Source: Candidatus Falkowbacteria bacterium
GTDB lineage: Bacteria; Patescibacteriota; Patescibacteriia; XYB2-FULL-38-15
Assembly: GCA_016214745.1 (NCBI GenBank)
Contig: JACRNW010000016.1
Span: 591 to 64,590, forward strand
Length of the DNA stretch: 64,000 nt
Reading direction: 5' to 3'
Shown here piece by piece: positions 2,589-64,000 of this stretch (positions are counted from its first letter, which is position 1; every line of letters begins with the position of its first letter). A program made the translations under genes and the position numbers. The notes below the pieces were generated by a model. The model saw nothing but the letters and a program-made list of their open reading frames with translations, searched no databases and was not told the DNA's origin.

Positions 2589-3611
2589 ATGGACGAAGAA
2601 CGACTCATCACACCAAAAGAACAAAATGAGGACCAAGTGTTTGATATGACACTTCGGCCCAAGGTTTTGGCTGAATATATCGGCCAGGAACAGATTAAAA
2701 AAAATCTGGAAATTTTTATTTCCGCGGCAAAGAAAAGAAAAGAACCTATTGAACATGTTTTGCTTTACGGCTGTCCGGGTCTTGGAAAAACTACCCTCGC
2801 TCACGTCATCTCAAATGAAATGGGCGCCCAAATCCGTATCACTTCCGGTCCGGCGATTGAACGCGCCGGCGACCTCGCGGCGATTCTCACAAACCTCGGC
2901 GAAGGTGATATCTTATTTATTGATGAAATCCATCGCTTAAATAAAGTAATTGAAGAAGTTTTATATCCGGCTATGGAAGAGTACGCCCTAGATTTGGTTA
3001 TTGGCAAAGGGCCCGGCGCGAGAACGGTCCGTCTGGACTTGCCGCGTTTCACGATTATCGGCGCCACGACAAAAGTCAGTATGATTTCCTCGCCGCTCCG
3101 CGATCGCTTTGGCGCGACCTATCATTTAAATTTTTATGAAGACGCGGATATCGGAAAAATTATTAACCGCAGCGCCAAAATTTTAAACATTAAAATTGAT
3201 AATGGCGCCGTGGAACTTTTAGCCAGCCGCGCCCGCAAAACTCCTCGCGTCGCAAACCGCATTTTGAAACGCGTCCGCGATTACGCCGAAGTCAAGGCAA
3301 ATGGTATAATAACAATGGAACTGGCCGAAGTTGCGCTCAAAAATTTAGGCGTTGACCAATTCGGCTTGGATCAAATTGATCGCCGGATTCTTGAATCAAT
3401 TATTAAAAAATTTCAGGGCGGTCCGGTCGGTTTGAACACGCTCTCCGCCGCGACCGGCGAAGAACAAGCCACGATTGAAGAAGTCTACGAACCATATCTC
3501 TTACAACTTGGATTTATAAACCGCACGCCGCGCGGCCGGGTCGCCACTGAAACGGCGTATAAACATCTGGGCATTGATATCCCAAAAAATTTACAAGAAA
3601 AACTTGTCTAA
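2589..3611 (+). CDS. ruvB: Holliday junction branch-migration helicase RuvB
   Basis: Walker [18 protein letters not shown], full-length RuvB-like sequence. Confidence 0.95.
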
Positions 3612-9341: not shown

Positions 9342-10091
9342 ATGGAAACCAAACTGGTGGCCTTGACCATCTGTTTCGTGATCGGCGGATGCGGTCTGGA
9401 TACGGGCGGCATGGGCGAGCCGGACGACGGCGCTCTGCCCGACATCGTGGAAGAGGGCGAGCCGGACATCGGCCCGGACGAAGCCGCGACCGACGTTTCC
9501 GAAGCCGACCAAGAAGACGTGGCCGAGGATGCGGGCGAAGACGAAACGGCGGACGAGACCGAGCCCGACGAAGCATCTCCCGACGAGGCAGCCGAGGACG
9601 TCACAGACGTCCCCGACGAGACCGAGCCGGAAGACGCGGACGATGCGGCCGACGAAGCGGGCGATGAAGCAAGCGACGAAGGCGGCGAGACCGAGGACGG
9701 CGAACCCGACCCCTGCGCTCTGCCGGAAATCCCCGCCACGGGAATTTTCGTCTGGTACTGCTTCGACTACGACTTGTCCTCTCCGATGTCTCTCGAGTTC
9801 CAAGCCGAACGGGCCGGAATTCCAGTCGTGAGCTGGCGTGCTGCCCCTGGTTGCTCGACAACTCGCGGGCGGCGGCTTGAATGCACGCTCACGCCGACGG
9901 TGTGGGATGCCACCTACATCTTCAACATTCGGCTCGACCCGGGTGTTGGGATCGGGTGGTCCTGCGGGCCGGAACTTCTGGCCATCTGGGGTACGCCGCA
10001 TGTTTGGCTGGACGGAGTGGAGTTGACCGTCACATCAGTGACGAACGGCGACGGCGGCTGCAACCACAGCTTCCTGACACCCTCGCTGTAG
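9342..10091 (+). CDS. Acidic lipoprotein with a D/E-rich low-complexity region (GC-rich island 2)
   Basis: Signal peptide with lipobox (LTICFVIGGC), a long Asp/Glu-rich spacer, a C-terminal Cys-containing domain. RBS GAAAGGAAGGATATAGATG. ~68% GC. Confidence 0.6.
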   Translation: METKLVALTICFVIGGCGLDTGGMGEPDDGALPDIVEEGEPDIGPDEAATDVSEADQEDVAEDAGEDETADETEPDEASPDEAAEDVTDVPDETEPEDADDAADEAGDEASDEGGETEDGEPDPCALPEIPATGIFVWYCFDYDLSSPMSLEFQAERAGIPVVSWRAAPGCSTTRGRRLECTLTPTVWDATYIFNIRLDPGVGIGWSCGPELLAIWGTPHVWLDGVELTVTSVTNGDGGCNHSFLTPSL

Positions 10092-10689: not shown

Positions 10690-11805
10690 ATGAAAATCCA
10701 CTCCTGGCATCTCATTATCGGTTCAATAATTTTATTTTTGTTTGATTTTTTAATTTTAGCCAATAAAACAATTTTCCCGAACCAACAGATGAAAGGAATT
10801 TCCACGGTTATCGCCCTTGCCTGCGCTCTGGTTTTTGTGACAGGAATTATGTGGGCTATATTTGAACCGATTGCCAAAAGAATAAAGTCGCGCCCGGCCG
10901 CCTCCGCCGCTCCCCCGATGATGGCGTCGGAGAAAAGCCGGCTTGCTTTGACCACGCTGGAAATTGTGTTTAATCGGCTTTTTGCGGTTTTGTTGGTTCT
11001 ATCCGCTGTCCCGCTTATTTTGAATCCACTGACCATTCCGACAATCATCATCTTTATAATTTTTGCCCTTTTTCTCTGGTTTAGCAAAAAATACCATCTG
11101 TCTGCCAATATTATTTTTTTAATTTTCGCTTTGGGCATTTATTTTATTCAAATTCCACCCATCGCCTGGGGAATTTTCCGCGGTTTAAAAGAGTTCCGGA
11201 TCGGCGGTTTTGACTTTCATCAATTTACCCTGCTCTTTTGCGTCGCACCACTTATTTTTATTTCTTTTTCAGTTAGAAATATTTTGGGCAATATTTTTGC
11301 TTACTTTAAAACCAACGTTTCGCGTAATGCTTTTTATTTGATTTCTCTATTTATTGTTTTTGTAACGCTCCCGGCTTATCCGTTATTGGACAGTATAAGA
11401 CTGCGCGACCGGACGAGGAACGTGAACACCGCAGTTGGCGGAGATTTGTCTCTCGTTTATACGCAGCAGTCACTTACTTTTATAGATCGTTATAATATGG
11501 CGGGAAATTTCACTTCAAATTTTGATTCCTCTACTAAAAAATACATTTACCATTTACAACTGCTTGAACCACTTAAAAAAGACATTCAATTTACGAAAGT
11601 TGAAACTGACGGAGAAAAAATTAATTTTACAACTGACAGCCGGATAGCATGTTCAAATTGTCAAAAGGATATGAGTGATCCGTACGGCCTAATTTTTCCA
11701 GCCGGTAAAGATATTGATTTTACTATTGTGAACGACTGGCTAATTAAGACCATCAATTTCACTGAGCCAGGAGATAAAGTAGACGAATTTATTTTTTGGA
11801 AATAA
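10690..11805 (+). CDS. Hypothetical polytopic membrane protein with a C-terminal soluble domain
   Basis: 371 aa, about 6 N-terminal TM helices. No recognisable family. Confidence 0.5.
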   Translation: MKIHSWHLIIGSIILFLFDFLILANKTIFPNQQMKGISTVIALACALVFVTGIMWAIFEPIAKRIKSRPAASAAPPMMASEKSRLALTTLEIVFNRLFAVLLVLSAVPLILNPLTIPTIIIFIIFALFLWFSKKYHLSANIIFLIFALGIYFIQIPPIAWGIFRGLKEFRIGGFDFHQFTLLFCVAPLIFISFSVRNILGNIFAYFKTNVSRNAFYLISLFIVFVTLPAYPLLDSIRLRDRTRNVNTAVGGDLSLVYTQQSLTFIDRYNMAGNFTSNFDSSTKKYIYHLQLLEPLKKDIQFTKVETDGEKINFTTDSRIACSNCQKDMSDPYGLIFPAGKDIDFTIVNDWLIKTINFTEPGDKVDEFIFWK

Positions 11806-22713: not shown

Positions 22714-23247
22714 TCACCGGCCAGCCGAGGTCGGCGAAACTGTTCCGCAGTCCAGGTTGCCGATCTCGACGCCGTGATGCCCCCGCCCGGTGGCGTCGAT
22801 CCAGAAACTCCTGACGCAATTCGCCACGTGCTGCAAGGGCGGCGGACCGATGTAGCCCTTGGCCTTGATCTCGTGCTGACCGACCGCGTCCGCGATGACC
22901 CAACAGGTTTCGCCCGGGGGCAAGAACCCACCGGTCTCCGGTAGATCGATGGCCGGTTCATCGATCCAAATCCGAAGAGAAATCTCGGTCTCGTTCGTGA
23001 CCGGCAAGCACCTCGGCCCCTCGCACCAGGGCGGCGGCCGGTGCAAAAAGCACACGTTCGACGGCGGTACCTCGTAGGCCCCGGACAGCGGATCCACCGG
23101 ATACGCCGCGTAAGCGGGGTAAGCAGCCGGCAGGCCACCTACCATGTAGGGTGCCTGAGCCGGGTAGGTCCCGTAACCGTAGCTGCCGCCCCAGAGGCCG
23201 CAACCGAGCGAAGCGACCACGAACATCATCGAGACGAACTTCGTCAT
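22714..23247 (-). CDS. Lipoprotein, hypothetical (GC-rich island 3, gene 2 of operon)
   Basis: Signal peptide with lipobox (VVASLGC). RBS GGAAGGGAGACAGCCATG. ~66% GC. Start overlaps the upstream gene's stop (ATGA). Confidence 0.6.
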   Translation of the reverse strand: MTKFVSMMFVVASLGCGLWGGSYGYGTYPAQAPYMVGGLPAAYPAYAAYPVDPLSGAYEVPPSNVCFLHRPPPWCEGPRCLPVTNETEISLRIWIDEPAIDLPETGGFLPPGETCWVIADAVGQHEIKAKGYIGPPPLQHVANCVRSFWIDATGRGHHGVEIGNLDCGTVSPTSAGR

Positions 23248-23651
23248 GGCTGTCTCCCTTCCAAGGCGTCAAGCCGCCGATCGTAATCGTCGGCGTCTTC
23301 TTCGAGATCCTCCGCCCTCTCTTCGAGTGCTGGATCCCGAGTCTGGCCGTAGCCGTACTGGCCGTAGCCGTAGTAGTTCGACGAACCACCGTAACCGTAC
23401 CCGCCGGAGTAACCTCTGTAGCAGCGTTCCGGATGGCCGCCGCGCCTTTCGCCCTGGCTTCGGAGGCAGCTGCCTTCGTCCCGGATCCGATCGGCCTGGG
23501 CCGACGTCAGGTCGGCCGCCGACATTTCCATGGGACCGGGTCCCATGAACCCGTTGGCCTCGTAGGTCATGCCGCCGCTCCGAAGACTCGTCTGAGCCGT
23601 GAAGCAGCCGGACATCGCAAACATCACGAACAACGCCGCGAAAAGCCTCAT
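23244..23651 (-). CDS. Gly/Tyr-rich lipoprotein, hypothetical (GC-rich island 3, gene 1)
   Basis: Start reassigned to MRLFAALFVMFAMSGCF (ATG at 23651) because it has the RBS AAGGGAGGTGTGGAATG. Lipobox AMSGC. GYSGGYGYGGSSNYYGYGQYGYGQ low-complexity region. Confidence 0.6.
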   Translation of the reverse strand: MRLFAALFVMFAMSGCFTAQTSLRSGGMTYEANGFMGPGPMEMSAADLTSAQADRIRDEGSCLRSQGERRGGHPERCYRGYSGGYGYGGSSNYYGYGQYGYGQTRDPALEERAEDLEEDADDYDRRLDALEGRQP

Positions 23652-23733
23652 TCCACACCTCCCTTGGGGCCCCAAGCCCCATGTTTTAAAAGAAAAGAAC
23701 CATCCGTACCCCCATTAAGGAGCAGGACATTTT

Positions 23734-23762
23734 ACTGTAGCATAAAAACCTATTTTCGTCAA
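23734..23762 (-). promoter_or_regulatory. Candidate sigma70 promoter for the lipoprotein operon (TTGACG-17-TACAGT, minus strand)
   Basis: Hexamers read on the minus strand. A 14-bp perfect palindrome CTTGGGGCCCCAAG (23663-23676) lies between promoter and RBS and may be an operator. Confidence 0.45.
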
Positions 23763-53986: not shown

Positions 53987-54247
53987 TTAGAAGGAGAGCG
54001 GCTTGCCGCACAGCAGACATTGGCCGGGGTCTGTTCCTCCCGTCGGGTTTCCGAAGCCGCAGTGGGGGCACCTCACGCGGTTCGGCATCTCGGGAGCGTC
54101 TGAGGCGAACAGAAAGTCCACTTCCAGAGATTCTCCCTCAACTTCTCCTTCCGACGGCAGAGAAGTGTCGGGATTGCCGTGGAGAAGCCATGCGCTGATC
54201 GTGGCTTCGTCGGCCGGACAGGGTCTTCTGATTTCCCTTGTGCTCAT
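53987..54247 (-). CDS. Small zinc-ribbon protein (86 aa), GC-rich island 4 gene 2
   Basis: C-terminal CPHCGFGNPTGGTDPGQCLLCGKP zinc ribbon. RBS GTGAGGAGACCATG overlaps the upstream stop. Replaces the 151-aa ORF-track call, whose N-terminus is out of frame with the RBS. Confidence 0.5.
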   Translation of the reverse strand: MSTREIRRPCPADEATISAWLLHGNPDTSLPSEGEVEGESLEVDFLFASDAPEMPNRVRCPHCGFGNPTGGTDPGQCLLCGKPLSF

Positions 54248-54254
54248 GGTCTCC

Positions 54255-54491
54255 TCACTTCCCGACCCGTTCGCGAAACCACAGGCAGAGGGCGTAGAAG
54301 CTCTGCTCGGCTTCGTCGCCCAAAATGGCCCCGAGCGGCAAAGGCCGCCGGCCGCGTTCCGCGACGACGGTTTGGCCAAACGCTCCGCAGCGTTCACGGA
54401 ATTCAATATCCAGTTCCGTTGCCCCGATAAAAAAGTTGGCACGGCGTTGCATTTCGCCGATTTGGCCGATTGCTTCTTCTAGTTCCACCAT
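54255..54491 (-). CDS. Small hypothetical protein (78 aa), GC-rich island 4 gene 1
   Basis: Strong RBS AAAAAGGAGGGAGGAGATG. ~62% GC. Confidence 0.5.
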   Translation of the reverse strand: MVELEEAIGQIGEMQRRANFFIGATELDIEFRERCGAFGQTVVAERGRRPLPLGAILGDEAEQSFYALCLWFRERVGK

Positions 54492-57454: not shown

Positions 57455-59689
57455 ATGTACTTACAGAAATTGGAAATTCAAGGATTTAAGTCTTTCGCCA
57501 ATAAGACCGTTTTGGAATTTACTGCCAAGGGCAGAAATCAAAAAAGTGTAACTGCGATAGTTGGTCCAAATGGCAGTGGCAAATCCAATATTGCCGATGC
57601 TGTCCGCTGGGTTTTGGGCGAGCAGAGTTTAAAATTGCTCCGCGGCAAAAAGTCGGAAGACGTGATTTTTTCCGGATCGCCGAAAAAACCGCGTATGGGT
57701 TTTGCCGAGGTTTCGTTATATTTGAATAATGAAGACGGTTCCGCGCCGATTGATTTTCGCGAAGTGGTTTTGACTCGCCGAGTTTATCGAAGTGGCGAGA
57801 GCGAATATTTGATTAATAAAAGTAAGGTTCGCCTTTCGGACGTTTTATTGCTTTTGGCCCAATCAAATTTTGGCCAAAAAACCTACTCCATCATCGGCCA
57901 GGGCATGGTGGATGCGATGTTACTTGCCACGCCGCTTGAACGTAAAGAATTTTTTGATGAAGCGACTGGAGTTGAACAATACCAAATGAAGCGCGATCAG
58001 GCTTTGAATAAATTAAAAGCCGGCGAAGAAAATTTACGCCAAGCCGAAACGCTTTTTGCCGAAATTGAACCGCGGGTAAAATCTTTGACGCGCCAAATGA
58101 AGCGTTTGGCCGAACGGAGTCAGGTTGAAGCTGAACTGAAAAGTTTGCAGAAAAAATATTACAGCCATCTTTGGAAAGAGCTGACCGGCAAGATGAAAAA
58201 TGAGGAAACGCGCGTCGCGCCGCTCGCGGCAAAAAAGAAAAAACTGGAAGAAGAAATTTCCGAAGCCGAAGGAAAACTGAAGGTGATGGAAAAAGAACAG
58301 CCGACGTCGGATGTTTTCAGAAAACTTCAAACTGAATACGAAAAATTATTTGAAGAAAAGAATCGTCTGCGCGAACGGGACATGACCGTCAAAAACAAGA
58401 TTGCTCTCTTTGAACATGTTGGGCTTAGCCGGCCAATGGCCATGCCGGCCAGTGAAGTTGAAATGGCGATTGAAGATTTATTTCAAAGATATGAAAGTTT
58501 CGTCCAAAAATTAGTAAAAGCGAAAGAAGTCGGCGATTTGGCGAATTTAAAAAAAGAAGCGGAAGGCCTGCGGCGGGAATTCGCGGATTTTTTCGCTAAA
58601 TTAAAACGCGAGCCGGCGAAGCATGAAGCCGCGAAAATTGATCCGTCTTTGCCGAAAGAATTGGAAAAAATTGCCGGTGAAATTGAAAAGATAAATCGCG
58701 ACCTGACTGAAGTTCAAGTAAAAATTGAAAATTTTAATCGCGAACAAGAGATTGAACGGAGAAGTTTTTTTGAGTTGCAAAGAATTCTCCAGTTAAAACA
58801 GCACGAACTTTATCTTTTGACTTCAGAAATCAATTCCATTCAGGTGGAAAATGCTGGAGCCGTTGCGCGGCGTGAAGATTTGGAAAGAGAAATTAAACAG
58901 GAGTTGGGCGATTTGGGAAATCTCGGCGAGTCGGCCGGTTTTGAGTCGGATTGGCGCGATAAAATTTTTAAATTGAAACATCAGCTGGAATTGATCGGCG
59001 GCATTGATCCGGAAACGGAAAAGGAATATAAGGAATCGAGCGAGCGCTACGAATTTTTAAAAAGCCAGATTACCGATTTGCGCGGAGCGATAGATTCTTT
59101 AATGAAAGTGATCGGCGAATTGGACGGAATTATTAAAAAACAATTTGATACGGCTTTTGGAAAAATCAACGACGAGTTTGGAAAATATTTTAAAATTTTG
59201 TTTGGCGGCGGCAAAGCCCAGTTGACACTGAAAAAAGAAATTAAGGTAGAAGAAGAGGAAGCGGCCGAGGGAGAAGTGGCGGAAGTTGCGCCGGCAGAAG
59301 AGAAAAAAAAGAAAGGCGAGGAATTTGTCGCCGGAATTGAAGTGGAAGCTACTCCGCCGGGTAAGCGTTTAAAAAATATTGGCATGCTTAGCGGCGGCGA
59401 GCGGGCCCTCACATCCATCGCGCTTCTTTCGGCGATCATTGCCAATAATCCCGCGCCGTTTGTTGTTTTGGACGAAGTGGACGCCGCGCTTGATGAATCA
59501 AACTCCGTGCGCTTTGCCAATGTTTTTGATGAGTTGACCGGGAAGACTCAATTTATTTTAATTACCCACAATCGTGCGACTATGCAAAAGGCCAGTATTC
59601 TATACGGCGTGACTATGGAATCGGATGGCGTCTCGAGGCTCTTGAGCTTGAATCTTGAGCAGGCGGAAAAAGCGGTCAACCCCGCTTGA
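57455..59689 (+). CDS. smc: SMC-family chromosome segregation ATPase (shortened, 744 aa)
   Basis: N-terminal Walker A GPNGSGKSN, C-terminal signature LSGGERALTSIALL and Walker B VVLDEVDAALD. The coiled coil is much shorter than in canonical SMC. Confidence 0.8.
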   Translation: MYLQKLEIQGFKSFANKTVLEFTAKGRNQKSVTAIVGPNGSGKSNIADAVRWVLGEQSLKLLRGKKSEDVIFSGSPKKPRMGFAEVSLYLNNEDGSAPIDFREVVLTRRVYRSGESEYLINKSKVRLSDVLLLLAQSNFGQKTYSIIGQGMVDAMLLATPLERKEFFDEATGVEQYQMKRDQALNKLKAGEENLRQAETLFAEIEPRVKSLTRQMKRLAERSQVEAELKSLQKKYYSHLWKELTGKMKNEETRVAPLAAKKKKLEEEISEAEGKLKVMEKEQPTSDVFRKLQTEYEKLFEEKNRLRERDMTVKNKIALFEHVGLSRPMAMPASEVEMAIEDLFQRYESFVQKLVKAKEVGDLANLKKEAEGLRREFADFFAKLKREPAKHEAAKIDPSLPKELEKIAGEIEKINRDLTEVQVKIENFNREQEIERRSFFELQRILQLKQHELYLLTSEINSIQVENAGAVARREDLEREIKQELGDLGNLGESAGFESDWRDKIFKLKHQLELIGGIDPETEKEYKESSERYEFLKSQITDLRGAIDSLMKVIGELDGIIKKQFDTAFGKINDEFGKYFKILFGGGKAQLTLKKEIKVEEEEAAEGEVAEVAPAEEKKKKGEEFVAGIEVEATPPGKRLKNIGMLSGGERALTSIALLSAIIANNPAPFVVLDEVDAALDESNSVRFANVFDELTGKTQFILITHNRATMQKASILYGVTMESDGVSRLLSLNLEQAEKAVNPA

Positions 59690-59854
59690 CAAACAGACAG
59701 CACTGTAGCAAAATAGCAATACGGTCAGAAGTTAGACATTTATGATCCTTGGGATTTTTAAGATTCTTAGGATCGTTAGGTAAAGTGAAGTTTAAAATTT
59801 AAAAAATCTTAATAATCTTAAAAATCGTCAGAATCTTAATAATCTTAACAACAT

Positions 59855-60226
59855 ATGTTAGTAATTCGTCTATCTCGCACGGGTAAAAGCGCGCAGCCAA
59901 GCTACCGCTTGATTGTTTCAGAAAAAAGTAAAGATCCTTGGGGAAAATATTTAGAAATCCTCGGACATTATTATCCAAAAAAAGAAGCCAAGCTGGTGGA
60001 CTTGAATGAAGAAAGATTAAAATACTGGTTGGGGAAAGGCGCAAAACTTTCCGAAACCGTAAATAATATTTTGGTTAATCAGGGAGTGGTAAATACGCCA
60101 AAAGTAAGAATGGTTAAGATTAGTAAGCGACGGGCGGCCAAAGCGGCTGAATCCAAAAAAGGAGCCGAGGCAGCTGCCAAAGCAGCAGCGCCAAAGGCCG
60201 AAACGCCGGTTGAGACAAAGGCTTAA
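59855..60226 (+). CDS. rpsP: 30S ribosomal protein S16 with Ala/Lys-rich C-terminal extension
   Basis: MLVIRLSRTGKSAQPSYRLIV matches the S16 N-terminus. Confidence 0.9.
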   Translation: MLVIRLSRTGKSAQPSYRLIVSEKSKDPWGKYLEILGHYYPKKEAKLVDLNEERLKYWLGKGAKLSETVNNILVNQGVVNTPKVRMVKISKRRAAKAAESKKGAEAAAKAAAPKAETPVETKA

Positions 60227-60337
60227 GGGTTGACAAATTCTTTAAAAAATGTTATTGTATTAATATAAATAGCTCTTCTGTGCATGGTCGAACAGCAAAG
60301 CAGCTATTTTCTGAACATTTAACAAGAAAAGAAACGT

Positions 60338-60658
60338 ATGGCAGAACGAGATCAAGAGTTCGTTGAATACATCGTGAAGCAGATCGTCAATCATCCGGAA
60401 GACGTCAAGACCGAAAGAACGGTCGACGAAATGGGAGTTTTAATCACTCTCAAAATCCATCCGGAAGACATGGGTTATGTGATTGGCAAGCAGGGTCAAA
60501 CCGCTCGCTCGATCAGAACTCTGTTGAAGATTGTCGGTGCGAAGGAAAAAGCCAGAGTCAATTTGAAAATCTACGAACCGGAAGGTTCAAGGATGAATCG
60601 AAGAGGCCCGGCTCCTTCTTCCGATGTTGACGCGGATGTTGAAGACTTGAAAATCTAA
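60338..60658 (+). CDS. KH-domain RNA-binding protein (YlqC/UPF0109 family)
   Basis: GYVIGKQGQTARSIRTLL KH motif. Between rpsP and trmD as in the conserved cluster. Confidence 0.8.
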   Translation: MAERDQEFVEYIVKQIVNHPEDVKTERTVDEMGVLITLKIHPEDMGYVIGKQGQTARSIRTLLKIVGAKEKARVNLKIYEPEGSRMNRRGPAPSSDVDADVEDLKI

Positions 60659-60671
60659 AACATCAATATAT

Positions 60672-60708
60672 AAAAATAACACACCACAAAATGGTGTGTT
60701 ATTTTATT
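60672..60708 (+). terminator. Intrinsic terminator (AATAACACACC acaaaa TGGTGTGTTATTTTATT)
   Basis: 11-bp stem plus a T-rich tail. Confidence 0.75.
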
Positions 60709-60750
60709 CTTAAACTCGACAGTCGAGCCGAGAGAGAATACAATTTGAAT

Positions 60751-61422
60751 ATGCTTCAATTTGACATCATCACAATCTTCCCCAAAAGTTTTGACTCTTA
60801 TTTTTCCGAGAGCATTATTTCGCGTGGGCAAAAAAAGAAATTGATAAAAATAGATGTTCACGATTTGCGGAAGTGGACCGAAGATAAACGAAAGACGGTT
60901 GATGACAAACCGTATGGCGGCGGGCCGGGCATGGTTTTAAAAGTTGAGCCGCTCGCAAAAGCCCTGCGGACTTTAAAGTTAAAAGTGAAAAGTGTAAAGT
61001 GTAAAGTAATTTTGTTTTCCGCCGGCGGGAAACAGTTTGATAATGCAGTGGCGGCAGAGCTGGCAGAAAAATATAATCGCTTAATTTTAATTTGCGGACA
61101 TTACGAAGGAGTGGACGAACGCGTCAAAAAAATAATTAAAGATTTAGGTTTTGAATTTTTTGAAATTTCAATCGGCCCGTATGTTTTGACCGGTGGCGAA
61201 CTGCCAGCCATGGTTTTAGCCGACGCGGTAGCCCGGCAAATTCCCGGCGTGCTCGGTAAAATCGAGTCGCTCGAAGAAAAGCGTTTAGGTGTTGGCGTGC
61301 CGGCTTACACCCGCCCGGAAATTTTTACTTTTAAAAATAAAAAATATCAAGTGCCGAAGGTTTTATTATCCGGTGATAATAAAAAAATTGAAGAGTGGAG
61401 ACTGAAACGAATAAAAAAATAA
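60751..61422 (+). CDS. trmD: tRNA (guanine37-N1)-methyltransferase
   Basis: MLQFDIITIFP... and GHYEGVDERV motifs. Start set to ATG at 60751. Confidence 0.9.
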   Translation: MLQFDIITIFPKSFDSYFSESIISRGQKKKLIKIDVHDLRKWTEDKRKTVDDKPYGGGPGMVLKVEPLAKALRTLKLKVKSVKCKVILFSAGGKQFDNAVAAELAEKYNRLILICGHYEGVDERVKKIIKDLGFEFFEISIGPYVLTGGELPAMVLADAVARQIPGVLGKIESLEEKRLGVGVPAYTRPEIFTFKNKKYQVPKVLLSGDNKKIEEWRLKRIKK

Positions 61423-61438
61423 ATCTCCCAACTAATTT

Positions 61439-61639
61439 CCCCTCCCTTGATGGGAGGGGTAAGGGGAGGGTGAAAAAAATCCCTCGGCGTTTCCGCGCCA
61501 CTCCCTTTTAAAAAGGGAGATAAATTTCACCCCTCACCCCCGCCCGCCACGCAAGCCAGCTTGCTGGCGTTGCGGGCAGGCCAACCCTCTCCCTCAAGGG
61601 GAGAGGGATTTTAATATTTTCTCCCTTTCGAAAAGGGAG
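61439..61639. repeat. Cluster of five GC-rich palindromic hairpins (GGGAGAGGG / CCCTCTCCC family) between trmD and the DGR target
   Basis: CCCCTCCCttgatGGGAGGGG, CTCCCTTttaaaAAGGGAG, CCCGCC..GCCAGCttGCTGGC..GCGGG, CCCTCTCCCtcaagGGGAGAGGG, CTCCCTTtcgaaAAGGGAG. Related copies at 45572-45660 and 46037-46057. Confidence 0.6.
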
Positions 61640-61659
61640 AGTTAGAGAGGGATTTATCC

Positions 61660-61688
61660 TTGACTTTTTATCTAAATCATGTTAATAT
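61660..61688 (+). promoter_or_regulatory. Candidate promoter (TTGACT-17-TAATAT) for the DGR target gene
   Basis: Hexamers read directly, ~90 nt upstream of the ATG. Confidence 0.45.
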
Positions 61689-61776
61689 AAAGCGTTGTCC
61701 TCATGTTGAGGAAACCCTGGGCCACGGGCAGTGGCAAAATGCTTTTCGGGCTTTCAGCCTGGAAGGAGATTCGGTC

Positions 61777-62655
61777 ATGGCAAAGTATCCGAACTGGACC
61801 GGAAGGATCGAGGCGCTTCTGAACGTGCTCGGCGGCGAGGAGGTCGTCGACGCGCTCATCGCCGGCACCAAGGTCGCGGAGATCAAGGATGCCGTGCGGA
61901 TGCTTTTCGACCGCCACGGTCGGTGCATCCCGCCGCAGGGCATGAAGGCCGAGGTGGTGGACGCCAATCGCGACTTCCACCTCACCCAGCCGGAAGTGAA
62001 CTTCGCCGAACGCTTGGCGCGCCTGACGCGCTTCCTCACGAACGGCGAGACGCCGATCTCGGCCGAGGAGTTCGAGCGGCGCACGGCGGAAATCGTGCGG
62101 CGGGTCAAGGGCGACAAGCTCTTGGTCAACCTCTTCTGCGGCGTGTTTCTGCCGATCGTTCTGCCGCAGATCGCGATCGGCGACTACGGCAAGACGCTCG
62201 ACCTGACGCTCCTCCCGGCCGTGGGCCGCGCCTACGAGGCCGAGTTCGCGGGCCGGAAGTTCTACAACCACCGGCAGGGAACGCTCGCGGGCGAGGTCAC
62301 GGTGGTGAAGGGCAGCCGGCACGAGGCGCTCGTCGCGGCAATCGCGGCGGGTCCGGTCGTGGCGCTGTATTTCCCGACCGCCCTGCAGGGGTTCTCCATC
62401 CCGGCGGACCTCGAGCAGATGGCGATGCTTCCCGACTTCGTTCTGCCCACCGGCGCTCTGGAACCGGCCGCGGCCATGGTCATGTACCCGGATGTGCTGG
62501 CTCGCGATGGCCAGACGCCCGGGCTGGACTGCGCGGCGCTGTCCTGGCGGGGCGGTTCGCTCTACTTCAAGGCCGACGGCGACAACCTCCTCTTCAACGG
62601 CGGGGGTCTGAGCGCCCGCGGCAACTACTCCGGCGGGCTCGTCGTCCTCGGGTAG
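61777..62655 (+). CDS. DGR target (variable) protein. GC-rich; the C-terminal ~36 codons form the variable repeat
   Basis: Start at MAKYPNW with RBS GGAAGGAGATTCGGTCATG. The 3' 108 nt (62545-62652) match the template repeat at 63048-63155 except at 16 adenine positions. C-terminus ...SWRGGSLYFKADGDNLLFNGGGLSARGNYSGGLVVLG. No signal peptide seen. Confidence 0.8.
   Translation: MAKYPNWTGRIEALLNVLGGEEVVDALIAGTKVAEIKDAVRMLFDRHGRCIPPQGMKAEVVDANRDFHLTQPEVNFAERLARLTRFLTNGETPISAEEFERRTAEIVRRVKGDKLLVNLFCGVFLPIVLPQIAIGDYGKTLDLTLLPAVGRAYEAEFAGRKFYNHRQGTLAGEVTVVKGSRHEALVAAIAAGPVVALYFPTALQGFSIPADLEQMAMLPDFVLPTGALEPAAAMVMYPDVLARDGQTPGLDCAALSWRGGSLYFKADGDNLLFNGGGLSARGNYSGGLVVLG
62545..62652 (+). repeat. 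DGR variable repeat (VR)
   Basis: 92/108 identical to the TR. All 16 mismatches are A in the TR versus G/C/T here (mostly G). Confidence 0.85.
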
Positions 62656-62734
62656 TGTCTGCCACTCGGATTTCGGTTCCTTGTTCCTTGGATCAAGTCC
62701 CTTGAGGATTTGGTTCTCGGACGCTTGACTTCGA

Positions 62735-62772
62735 CGGGGAACACGACTAAACATCGTGCGCCCCGTTTTTTT
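62735..62772 (+). terminator. Intrinsic terminator after the DGR target gene
   Basis: CGGGGaaCACGActaaacaTCGTGcgCCCCG followed by T7. Confidence 0.75.
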
Positions 62773-63047
62773 ATTTTCAAAAACGTGATAAAGTATAAAT
62801 TGAAAATAGGCTAATGCACTGCAGTTCATGGATTGCAGTCGCCGAAATCCTGCGTTTTTCACAATGTATCAGAGTCCGGCAGTTTACGGATTGTCGGAGC
62901 GCATACAGAAGACGCGGTAAACGATGTAGACACTGCTTACTTTTCCCTGGTGTCCAAATTGGGACCAAATAAAATTCAGGAGACGTAAATCTCGAAAAAT
63001 ATCGGGACTATTTCTCCGGTGCATCCAGATGGGGGAAAATAAATAAA

Positions 63048-63155
63048 TGGCAGGGCAATTCGCTCTACTTCAAGGCCAACGACGACAACCTCAACTTCAA
63101 CAACAGGAATCTGAACGCCAACGACAACTACTCCGGCGGGCTCGTCGTCCTCGGG
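63048..63155 (+). repeat. DGR template repeat (TR), non-coding and AAC-codon rich
   Basis: Homologous to the VR. In the VR frame it reads W Q G N S L Y F K A N D D N L N F N N R N L N A N D N Y S G G L V V L G, AAC/AAT codons at the variable sites. No start codon, and a stop lies in-frame upstream (62970-62972). Confidence 0.85.
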
Positions 63156-63165
63156 AGTGTCTTCT

Positions 63166-63203
63166 CCAAAAAAATAAGAGAGTTCCCTTGGGGGAACTCT
63201 CTT
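63166..63203 (-). terminator. Intrinsic terminator of avd (minus strand); 12-bp perfect hairpin immediately 3' of the TR
   Basis: AAGAGAGTTCCC ttgg GGGAACTCTCTT, followed on the minus strand by T7. May also serve as the structured element flanking the TR. Confidence 0.7.
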
Positions 63204-63209
63204 GCAATA

Positions 63210-63551
63210 TTAGAGCGTCTTAATCCAACCGCCGAACATCCGGCCAATTTCTTGGATAGTGGTCTGGAGCGTAAGATATTTTTTCTGATCAAGAATTTTT
63301 AATTCTCGCAGGACGCGGATAAAAATTTTTAGCGTTTCAAATTTGTTATTGGCTGCCAAAAGTATCGGCCGTTTCGCTTCTTTCGGAAGATAACTTGTTT
63401 CAAGAAGCAATTCCAGCACGGCAATTATATATTCTTCGCATTTCGCGCCCAAAGCGTATTTATCTTTTTTGGGAAATAATTCAAGAAAATTATAGTATGT
63501 TTTATAAAGTTCAATCGTTTTTTTCAAAATCGGCACCTCTGCCCGTTCCAA
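63210..63551 (-). CDS. avd: DGR accessory variability determinant (Avd, four-helix-bundle protein)
   Basis: FPKKDKYALGAKCEEYIIAVLELLLETSYL ... LQTTIQEIGRMFGGWIKTL closely parallels Bordetella bAvd (...QVLIAEVGRILGSWIA). Apparent TTG start. Divergent from the RT gene. Confidence 0.75.
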   Translation of the reverse strand: MERAEVPILKKTIELYKTYYNFLELFPKKDKYALGAKCEEYIIAVLELLLETSYLPKEAKRPILLAANNKFETLKIFIRVLRELKILDQKKYLTLQTTIQEIGRMFGGWIKTL

Positions 63552-63563
63552 ACGTGAGGCGCT

Positions 63564-63573
63564 GGGGGGGGGG
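63564..63573. repeat. G10 homopolymer tract in the 44-nt avd/RT divergent intergenic region
   Basis: Read directly (GCTGGGGGGGGGGTATTG). Confidence 0.7.
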
Positions 63574-63595
63574 TATTGAAGGAATTATTTTGCAT

Positions 63596-64000
63596 ATGTT
63601 TGTAATATTAGAAAATTTATTTTTTGCTTGGGACGAATTTAAGAAAGAAAAACAGAAGAAAGTAGACGTGATGGAATTTGAACGGCATCTTGAGGACAAT
63701 CTTTTCCGGCTGTACGAAGATCTTAACAGAAAGATTTATTTTCATCAACCTTACGAAACATTTTATATTTATGATCCAAAGTTTCGAGTGATTAACAAGG
63801 CGGCGGTGCGCGATCGTGTTGTACATCATTTTGTTTTTAAATATCTTGAGAAAATTTATCAGCCGCTTTTTATTCATCAGTCTTATGCATGTCAAAAGGG
63901 TAAGGGCACGCATCTTGCCGTCCGAGATTTAAGTCGGGCGTTGAGAGCGGTTACGGGAAATTATACAAAGCCGGTTTGGGCGCTCAAAATGGATATTAAA
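63596..64000 (+). CDS. DGR reverse transcriptase (N-terminal 135 aa; continues beyond the window)
   Basis: Hand translation: MFVILENLFFAWDEFKKEKQKKVDVMEFERHLEDNLFRLYEDLNRKIYFHQPYETFYIYDPKFRVINKAAVRDRVVHHFVFKYLEKIYQPLFIHQSYACQKGKGTHLAVRDLSRALRAVT...ALKMDIK. RT domains 1-2 (DPKxRxI..AxxRDRVVHH; SYACxKGKGTHxA; xDIxK) are characteristic of DGR RTs. Confidence 0.85.
   Translation, partial: MFVILENLFFAWDEFKKEKQKKVDVMEFERHLEDNLFRLYEDLNRKIYFHQPYETFYIYDPKFRVINKAAVRDRVVHHFVFKYLEKIYQPLFIHQSYACQKGKGTHLAVRDLSRALRAVTGNYTKPVWALKMDIK

Follow-up and report, generated by a model that had tools for sequence, protein, structure and literature searches.

The 64,000-nt stretch of the Candidatus Falkowbacteria chromosome analysed here (contig JACRNW010000016.1; hereafter the window) carries at its right-hand end, just downstream of trmD, a group of genes and repeats that very probably forms a chromosomal diversity-generating retroelement (DGR) of the Candidate Phyla Radiation (CPR) lineage. 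Its arrangement is target-template repeat (TR)-(avd)-reverse transcriptase (RT), and it would work by the homing mechanism proposed below. The core parts, by position in the window, are:

61777-62655, plus strand: DGR target (variable protein) gene, 292 aa
62545-62652, plus strand: variable repeat (VR), comprising the final 36 target codons
62629-62662, plus strand: 3' end of the VR, resembling an initiation of mutagenic homing (IMH) site; an A-free, GC-rich 24 nt and then TAGTGTCTGC
63048-63155, plus strand: TR, with 29 adenines, mostly in AAC or GAC codons
63132-63164, plus strand: IMH*-like 3' end of the TR; the GC-rich 24 nt as in the VR and then AGTGTCTTC
63176-63203, both strands: 12-bp hairpin with a UUGG/CCAA tetraloop (z = -6.4); T7 comes next on the minus strand
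63210-63536, minus strand: avd, 108 aa from a GTG start, with TTG 63551 as an alternative start of the open reading frame (ORF)
63564-63573, between avd and the RT homology: G10 tract, 5 nt before AAGGA and 16 nt before TTG 63590
63590-64000, plus strand: N-terminal part of the DGR RT, about 135 codons, ending at the window edge

A first-pass annotation of this DNA had reported that the last 108 nt of the target gene recur downstream with 16 mismatches, all at adenines of the downstream copy, and an ungapped comparison agrees. The repeats differ at 16 of 108 positions, and at all 16 the TR has A where the VR has G, C or T; the probability of every mismatch landing on one of the 29 TR adenines is P = 1.3e-11. 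Each of these adenines (29/29) is at codon position 1 or 2. The A-only mismatches, with Avd and a DGR-type RT adjoining, also uphold the assignment of the downstream copy as TR and of the copy within the gene as VR. The homology of the two extends 9 nt beyond the stop codon with one 1-nt indel (VR GGGTAGTGTCT, TR GGG-AGTGTCT): the GC-rich 24 nt of IMH and IMH* are identical, and after the GGG, from the stop codon on, the 1-nt indel is followed by mismatches. A GTGTCT-like motif follows the TR in most related cassettes. Matching at the non-A positions of the TR revealed no second VR in the 64-kb window.

The minus-strand gene had been called Avd-like from its sequence, and profile searches bear this out, with a Pfam bAvd match at E = 1e-17 and an NCBIfam NF033474 (DivGenRetAVD) score of 86.6 bits against a curated cut-off of 80. 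Its GTG start is the one kept in L003, a syntenic relative (L-numbers denote loci from genome scans and metagenomes, the first genome scan having given 39 loci). The RT starts at TTG 63590 or ATG 63596, and its frame is open back through the G tract to GTG 63554. Because the RT fragment is truncated, Pfam gives only a weak RVT_1 match; the best PDB match is 8ub7_A, a 328-aa reverse transcriptase, at E = 9e-13, compared with 6.5e-3 for the group II protein LtrA, which supports the earlier reading of this ORF as a DGR-type RT. The full-length RT of L003, 90% identical to the window fragment, has the motifs IGNLTSQ and YADD and finds 8ub7_A at 8e-36; its strongest match among group II intron RTs is at 4e-19. 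We take 8ub7_A to be the DGR reverse transcriptase of a Bordetella phage (bRT). The nine PDB entries of the 8ub7 series match the nine complexes of the preprint 10.1101/2023.10.23.563531.

The hairpin directly 3' of the TR had been proposed to double as the avd terminator. Its fold score and the T7 run that follows it on the minus strand, which identifies a terminator of avd, sustain that proposal. A hairpin lies at the same place, with a different sequence, in 11 of 13 related cassettes, and the position matches that described for Avd-binding, tetraloop-capped stem-loops, which occur in 207 of 278 Avd-containing DGRs, CPR included (10.1101/2023.10.23.563531). By analogy, the plus-strand hairpin is a probable Avd-binding stem-loop of the DGR RNA, and the structure probably serves both strands. 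We propose that a plus-strand RNA containing the TR and this stem-loop would be bound by Avd and RT and reverse-transcribed, with misincorporation opposite the 29 template adenines. The cDNA would then replace the last 36 target codons, guided by the shared GC-rich 3' segment (IMH/IMH*), and up to 17 codons could be rewritten on the ligand-binding face of a C-type-lectin-fold domain. We infer the RNA boundaries, priming, Avd binding and homing steps by homology from the Bordetella phage element. The target itself is small, has no Pfam or NCBIfam family and no evident signal peptide, and appears to be a soluble protein. Its C-terminal half has a C-type-lectin-like (CLec) fold. CLec and formylglycine-generating enzyme (FGE)-type variable domains had been considered in the first pass, and the VR does fall on a fold of the CLec or FGE kind. 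When the PDB was searched with a profile of the target family there was no match, and a Foldseek comparison against viral structures gave none either.

The G10 tract between avd and the RT had been singled out as a slip-prone peculiarity of this element. The tract is real and unique in the window, being the only G or C run of at least 7 nt in 64 kb (0.014 expected), but it is not special to the locus. A slip-prone repeat in the RT gene is a feature of the whole lineage, and the G10 tract is its local representative. At the same site and between identical flanks, L003 has G7, L043 has G9 and L042 has G10. Among 14 cassettes found through their targets, 13 have one slip-prone repeat in the avd-RT span. 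The avd and target genes of these cassettes have none, and the density is 0.75/kb in the avd-RT span against 0.017/kb outside it (about 43-fold, P = 1e-18). The repeats occupy one of two sites. The first is 29-97 nt ahead of the start of RT homology. The second, 519-532 nt into the ORF and immediately before PIGNLTSQ, falls in a loop absent from the solved RT, and the repeats at this site are (AG)5-11, (CT)16, C12 then (TC)14, G10 and G12. The picture extends to metagenome loci found by RT similarity: 32 of 77 distinct loci carry a repeat (background 0.03/kb), with G7-G12 or (GT/TG)5-13 upstream in 27 of the 69 that include upstream DNA and (AG)n mid-ORF in five. No cassette or metagenome locus has both repeat positions occupied.

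Beyond the G tracts the RT frame remains open and specifies a conserved peptide, GGG-I-x-K-R-K-I-C-H-N-x-F-E-E-I-I-S-L-E-N. Tract and peptide have no canonical start between them in 17 loci, and the tract is therefore inside the 5' end of the RT ORF there; the equivalent tract has this placement in most of the clade. As assembled, eight of these 17 are in frame with an upstream start, and a 1-G change restores the frame in eight of the nine others. One pair of loci, from independent assemblies, differs in the tract alone: L014 has G10 (11634-11643) and L077 has G9 (about 34 nt before position 3501), the two being identical at all 1649 other aligned positions, and G9 sets a TTG start in frame where G10 does not. 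When the repeat is mid-ORF, the two halves of the RT are in different frames in five of nine cassettes. We note that mid-ORF repeats lie at L008 12165, L010 6624, L015 11881, L021 10404, L024 12406-12445, L025 2597, L026 12434, L031 4019 and L041 12289, and also occur in L045, L046, L055, L066 and L106. Whether an RT with a mid-ORF repeat is in frame varies from genome to genome, even between relatives (L025 and L031; L024 and L026).

That the gene is out of frame in about half of the assemblies suggests phase-variable RT expression, and on this sequence comparison the lineage repeat probably makes production of RT, and hence hypermutation, switch on and off stochastically. The switching units would sit at codons 2-5 (G7-G12), in the 5' untranslated region (UTR) as (GT)n, or in the mid-ORF loop as (AG)n, (CT)n, Gn or Cn. 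Transcriptional slippage is an alternative to switching by the DNA tract. Another explanation is that G10 and the other repeats are neutral, encoding Gly or Arg-Glu linkers, or are short-read homopolymer errors, and have no regulatory role; we consider this rather unlikely. As peptide the repeats are indeed tolerated, their sites being an N-terminal extension and a loop that the solved DGR RT lacks, and assemblies are unreliable at G9-G12. Two points count directly against the proposed switch. Homopolymer length differences between assemblies could be sequencing or assembly errors, and the subgroup to which the window belongs has conserved TTG 63590 and ATG 63596 starts downstream of the tract and no conserved upstream start. 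AAGGA precedes TTG 63590 by 6 nt, and in alignment this TTG coincides with the L024 start codon, ATG; in this subgroup the G10 tract may thus be in the 5' UTR, and its effect here is uncertain. Against a neutral or artefactual origin, the same two to three positions hold differing units (G, C, AG, CT, GT) which code for different peptides or lie in the 5' UTR, and this points to selection on the DNA repeat itself. The enrichment of the repeats over background with none in avd or target, their mutual exclusion between positions and the single slip that separates nearly all out-of-frame alleles from an upstream start argue in the same direction, in favour of a switch in the RT gene.

The GC richness of the target gene in a lower-GC genome was likewise real but misjudged as a local oddity, as it is lineage-wide. 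The gene has 68% GC and a GC content at third codon positions (GC3) of 0.91. The window as a whole has 44% GC, and GC3 is 0.36-0.39 in avd and the RT. The excess begins and ends at the borders of the target ORF, and the spacer between target and TR is host-like at 0.45-0.46. Within the target family, 36 of 46 members (40 loci) are more than 5 GC points above their flanks, with a median excess of 11 points and a GC3 18 points higher, and the GC of the targets follows that of their hosts at an offset. The same holds for 27 clean VR/TR pairs in metagenome loci found by RT similarity (L044-L122), whose targets belong to 12 unrelated clusters. Relative to the flanks, GC averages 12 points higher in these targets (more than 5 points in 23 of the 27) and about 6 points lower in the RT.

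It is possible that the gene is a recent import from a high-GC donor, with a composition unrelated to the DGR. The window has four other GC-rich ORF islands, target and TR modules are exchanged between close relatives (L042 and the window), homologs exist in high-GC Betaproteobacteria, and the synonymous divergence (dS) of the target from L003 is 0.19 where that of its neighbours ranges from 0.4 to more than 1. The systematic nature of the excess across the family and the 12 clusters nevertheless makes import unlikely. So does its confinement to the ORF, with a host-like spacer in the same module and target GC that follows that of the host. The closest homologs are all CPR proteins, and the same locus is found in two genomes with trmD dS > 1, with a GC3 of 0.90-0.91 in both. 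Candidate explanations for the systematic excess are codon or mRNA selection, biased gene conversion tied either to homing or to the exchange of modules, and a mobile pool of shared genes.

Several other causes were considered for the GC excess and rejected. Adenine-specific loss by off-target retro-conversion fails as the sole cause, A at third positions (A3) being reduced to 0.61 of background but T (T3) also to 0.75; in the window target A3 is 2.7% and T3 6.2%. An overlapping antisense gene fails because the 396-aa minus-strand ORF is a high-GC3 shadow that is lost in lower-GC homologs. GC3 rises only weakly towards the VR, its excess being 0.15-0.24 in the individual fifths of the gene, and the GC excess is not tied to an adjacent DGR, since homologs without RT or avd within 10 kb are equally GC-rich. 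Whatever its cause, the excess could be a cheap marker for finding targets. As to the other GC-rich ORF islands, they lie at 854-2387, 9342-10091, 22714-23675 and 53987-54482, with 60-65% GC and AT-rich flanks, and three of the four are behind sigma-70-like promoters. Their products are an orotidine monophosphate (OMP)-decarboxylase-like and phosphoribosyltransferase-like pair, three family-less lipoprotein-like proteins and a zinc-ribbon-like ORF.

A third feature shared with other loci is a structured leader in the target mRNA, with the following parts:

61693-61776, plus strand: leader, 84 nt with three hairpins, between promoter and start codon
61698-61712, plus strand: hairpin P1
61721-61735, plus strand: hairpin P2, GCCAC-GGGCA-GUGGC
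61746-61762, plus strand: hairpin P3, abutting the Shine-Dalgarno sequence
61763-61768, plus strand: Shine-Dalgarno sequence AAGGAG

A covariance model of the leader (R1), built from 16 copies, detected 37 copies at E < 1e-3 in 699 kb, each directly 5' of a target-family gene and with or without a nearby DGR. Besides that of the window, 36 copies lie in L001-L041 (e.g. L003 1968-2054 and L010 4221-4306). P2 (GCCNC-GGGCA-GNGGC) is 95% paired with compensatory changes in all five pairs, and P3 is 90% paired, also with compensatory changes. None of 500 shuffles reached the observed covariation score and slid controls gave 0.07-0.16 against 0.40, on an alignment that was fitted to the R1 model and so biased in favour of covariation. 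In an E-value scan of 58000-64000 against Rfam, the leader and the TR flanks had no match, and the two chance-level matches obtained were both elsewhere. That the leader is a translational control element is the obvious guess. On the minus strand, R1 also gave a weak match at 23649-23748 (17.6 bits, E = 0.0045), across the start of the GC-rich lipoprotein-like gene 23244-23675; this match may be due to chance. We tentatively propose that a slip-prone switch confined to the RT gene, which would yield mutating and non-mutating cells, GC-rich targets and a dedicated leader together make up one regulatory layer of CPR DGRs, a possibility we hold to be real but short of probable.

Comparison with relatives bears on whether the element has been working. 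L003 is syntenic with the window over S16-KH-trmD-target-TR-avd-RT. The two TRs differ at 2 of 108 positions, neither of them A, and the two VRs differ at 24 positions, 22 of which are among the 29 TR-A positions (Fisher P = 7.5e-15). The two remaining VR differences are the same as the two TR differences, each VR agreeing with the TR of its own genome, and it follows that the VRs have been rewritten from their own TRs since the lineages split. On this comparative evidence, the element was recently active, with mutagenic homing after the divergence of the window and L003. Between the same two genomes the VR has a nonsynonymous divergence (dN) of 0.34 and a dS of 0.075, and purifying selection is evident on avd (dN/dS about 0.05) and the RT (about 0.13). 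We note that dS is uneven along 59855-63600 in this comparison: S16 is saturated, and the values are 1.18 for trmD, 0.49 for KH, 0.50 for avd, 0.42 for the RT and 0.19 for the target. This suggests recombination or strong codon constraint in the cassette; the low value of the target could reflect strong codon constraint or recent exchange.

A third syntenic relative at the trmD-adjacent locus, L042 (4125-5600, corresponding to window 61690-63210), has the promoter, first leader hairpin, avd, G10 tract and RT in common with the window, with about 88% identity over avd and the RT start and more locally. Between these shared parts its target (266 aa, 67.5% GC) is unrelated to that of the window, spacer and hairpin are different, and the TR is its own, with 17 mismatches that are again A-only. 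The replacement of target, spacer and TR next to a shared avd and RT indicates that target and TR move as a unit relative to avd and RT.

Could the element be a decayed DGR, in which the repeats and avd survive, homing has been lost and the VR-TR differences are old? Four observations weigh against an intact, working element. The window ends before the catalytic motifs of its RT, which can be read only to codon 135. The RT of L042 is frameshifted in an A5GT6 run, AAAAA(G)TTTTTT, and that of L010 has an in-frame TGA at about 6575, upstream of its G10 tract, which is either a disrupted gene or a sequencing error. There is, finally, no significant GC-rich inverted repeat after the VR and IMH (fold z = -1.1 in the window and 0.0 in L003), a feature present downstream of the IMH in only 34% of DGRs (Wu et al., 2018; PMC5758913). 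The same survey discarded more than half of its candidate DGRs as defective, for premature stops and truncations. Decay is nonetheless very unlikely, given that the VRs were recopied after the TRs had diverged, as the two non-A differences that match each genome's own TR imply, that selection has been purifying on avd, the TR, the hairpin and the RT N-terminus, and that all 29 TR adenines are kept, in AAC-type codons. A chance repeat, or a duplication remnant of the gene 3' end that never served as template, has only the existence of a direct repeat in its favour and is effectively refuted, at virtually no remaining probability, by the improbability of the A-only mismatches, the adjoining Avd and DGR-type RT and the recurrence of the arrangement in dozens of loci.

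The remaining features of the locus frame the target gene and the TR:

61423-61660, between trmD and the target promoter: palindrome cluster, 238 nt, six hairpins of the CTCCC...GGGAG type
61660-61688, plus strand: target promoter from a promoter scan, sigma-70-like (TTGACT, 17 nt, TAATAT), with TG before the -10 box
62734-62773, plus strand: intrinsic terminator of the target, a stem-loop then T7 (fold z = -3.7), kept in L003
62774-63047, plus strand: non-coding spacer before the TR, 46% GC; the L003 copy is alike except for two insertions

The promoter is kept in L003 and L042, and the spacer is presumed to hold the promoter and the 5' part of the TR-containing RNA. The target does lie after trmD behind a cluster of palindromes, as had been observed, and the cluster is a genuine structure, with an RNA fold of -119.7 kcal/mol (z = -8.25). 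It is absent from L003 and has other sequence in its place in L042. Compared with phage genomes it gave no match, and Rfam returned only a chance-level molybdenum cofactor (Moco) riboswitch match.

All 72 target homologs with a source name in the database are from Patescibacteria. Distant homologs outside the CPR, at 31-39% identity, are found in L036, L038, L039, L040 and L028, the hosts being Chromobacterium piscinae DSM 23278, Dechloromonas, Rhodocyclales, Bacteriovoracia and a metagenome-assembled genome (MAG) of Pirellulales. None of the five has avd or RT adjoining. L036, L038, L039 and L040 have neither leader nor GC excess; the L028 homolog has the leader and is about 12 GC points above its flanks. 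Second target paralogs stand beside the first in L005 (6934-7842), L010 (7435-8313), L016 (8068-9012) and L041 (8742-9620), and in such multi-target cassettes some of the second paralogs have a VR-like 3' end matching the same TR.

As one more among hundreds of known CPR DGRs the element is routine. What may be new are three lineage-wide features that are apparently undescribed, namely the GC-rich targets, the slip-prone repeats of the RT gene and the target leader RNA. A 2017 study by Paul and colleagues is said to deal with DGRs of the CPR lineage. A search of the accessible literature on DGRs with phase variation, homopolymers or riboswitches found no description of these features. If the RT is indeed phase-variable, targeted hypermutation would itself be bet-hedged, and many CPR DGRs dropped as "broken" for their frameshifts may be switched-off alleles. 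The covarying leader, for its part, offers a handle on the control of variable-protein expression in uncultured organisms.

Set against known systems, the element itself is an ordinary CPR DGR of architecture B3 and not an unusual one. The first-pass annotation had regarded the divergent orientation of avd as unusual, but 90% of CPR DGRs have B3, that is TR-(avd)-RT with avd reversed (Wu et al., 2018; PMC5758913), and the order target(+)-TR(+)-avd(-)-RT(+) recurs in 14 of our 41 loci with a target homolog. Nor is a "cytoplasmic-looking" target exceptional, as had been supposed, since targets of the CPR clade ("clade 2") mostly lack transmembrane or other recognizable domains (Roux et al., 2021; PMC8144416). 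The element agrees with CPR B3 DGRs in gene order, reversed avd, a single upstream target with C-terminal VR and without transmembrane or known domains, a Patescibacteria host and a chromosomal setting among housekeeping genes, and no architectural difference separates it from them. It is in the GC-rich target, the slip-prone repeats of the RT gene and the structured target leader that it has features without mention in the papers on CPR DGRs consulted here.

Compared with Treponema denticola TvpA and FGE-type variable proteins (PDB 2y3c), the target has no detectable sequence similarity and no lipoprotein signal, and its N-terminal part of about 120 aa is without structural match. The DGR of Bordetella phage BPP-1 (mtd-avd-TR-brt) is closer in mechanism, with the same adenine-specific transfer from TR to VR, an Avd, an RT with IGxxxSQ, a GC-rich IMH at the 3' end of the VR, a tetraloop-capped stem-loop after the TR and a variable protein of C-type-lectin fold. 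The present element differs in being cellular and not phage-borne, in a target that is apparently soluble and not a tail fibre, in YADD (in L003) where BPP-1 has YMDD, and in having no cruciform after the VR.

Simple-sequence contingency loci are familiar from the poly-G tracts of Campylobacter and the repeats in phase-variable genes of Neisseria and Haemophilus. Unlike those loci, in which a surface structure or restriction system is switched, the gene concerned here is the mutator itself, the RT, and its repeats are known from assemblies. The likeness lies in the repeats, which are G7-G12 or dinucleotide tracts in the 5' UTR, immediately behind the start codon or midway along the ORF, which vary in length between near-identical genomes, and many alleles of which are out of frame and one slip away from being in frame.

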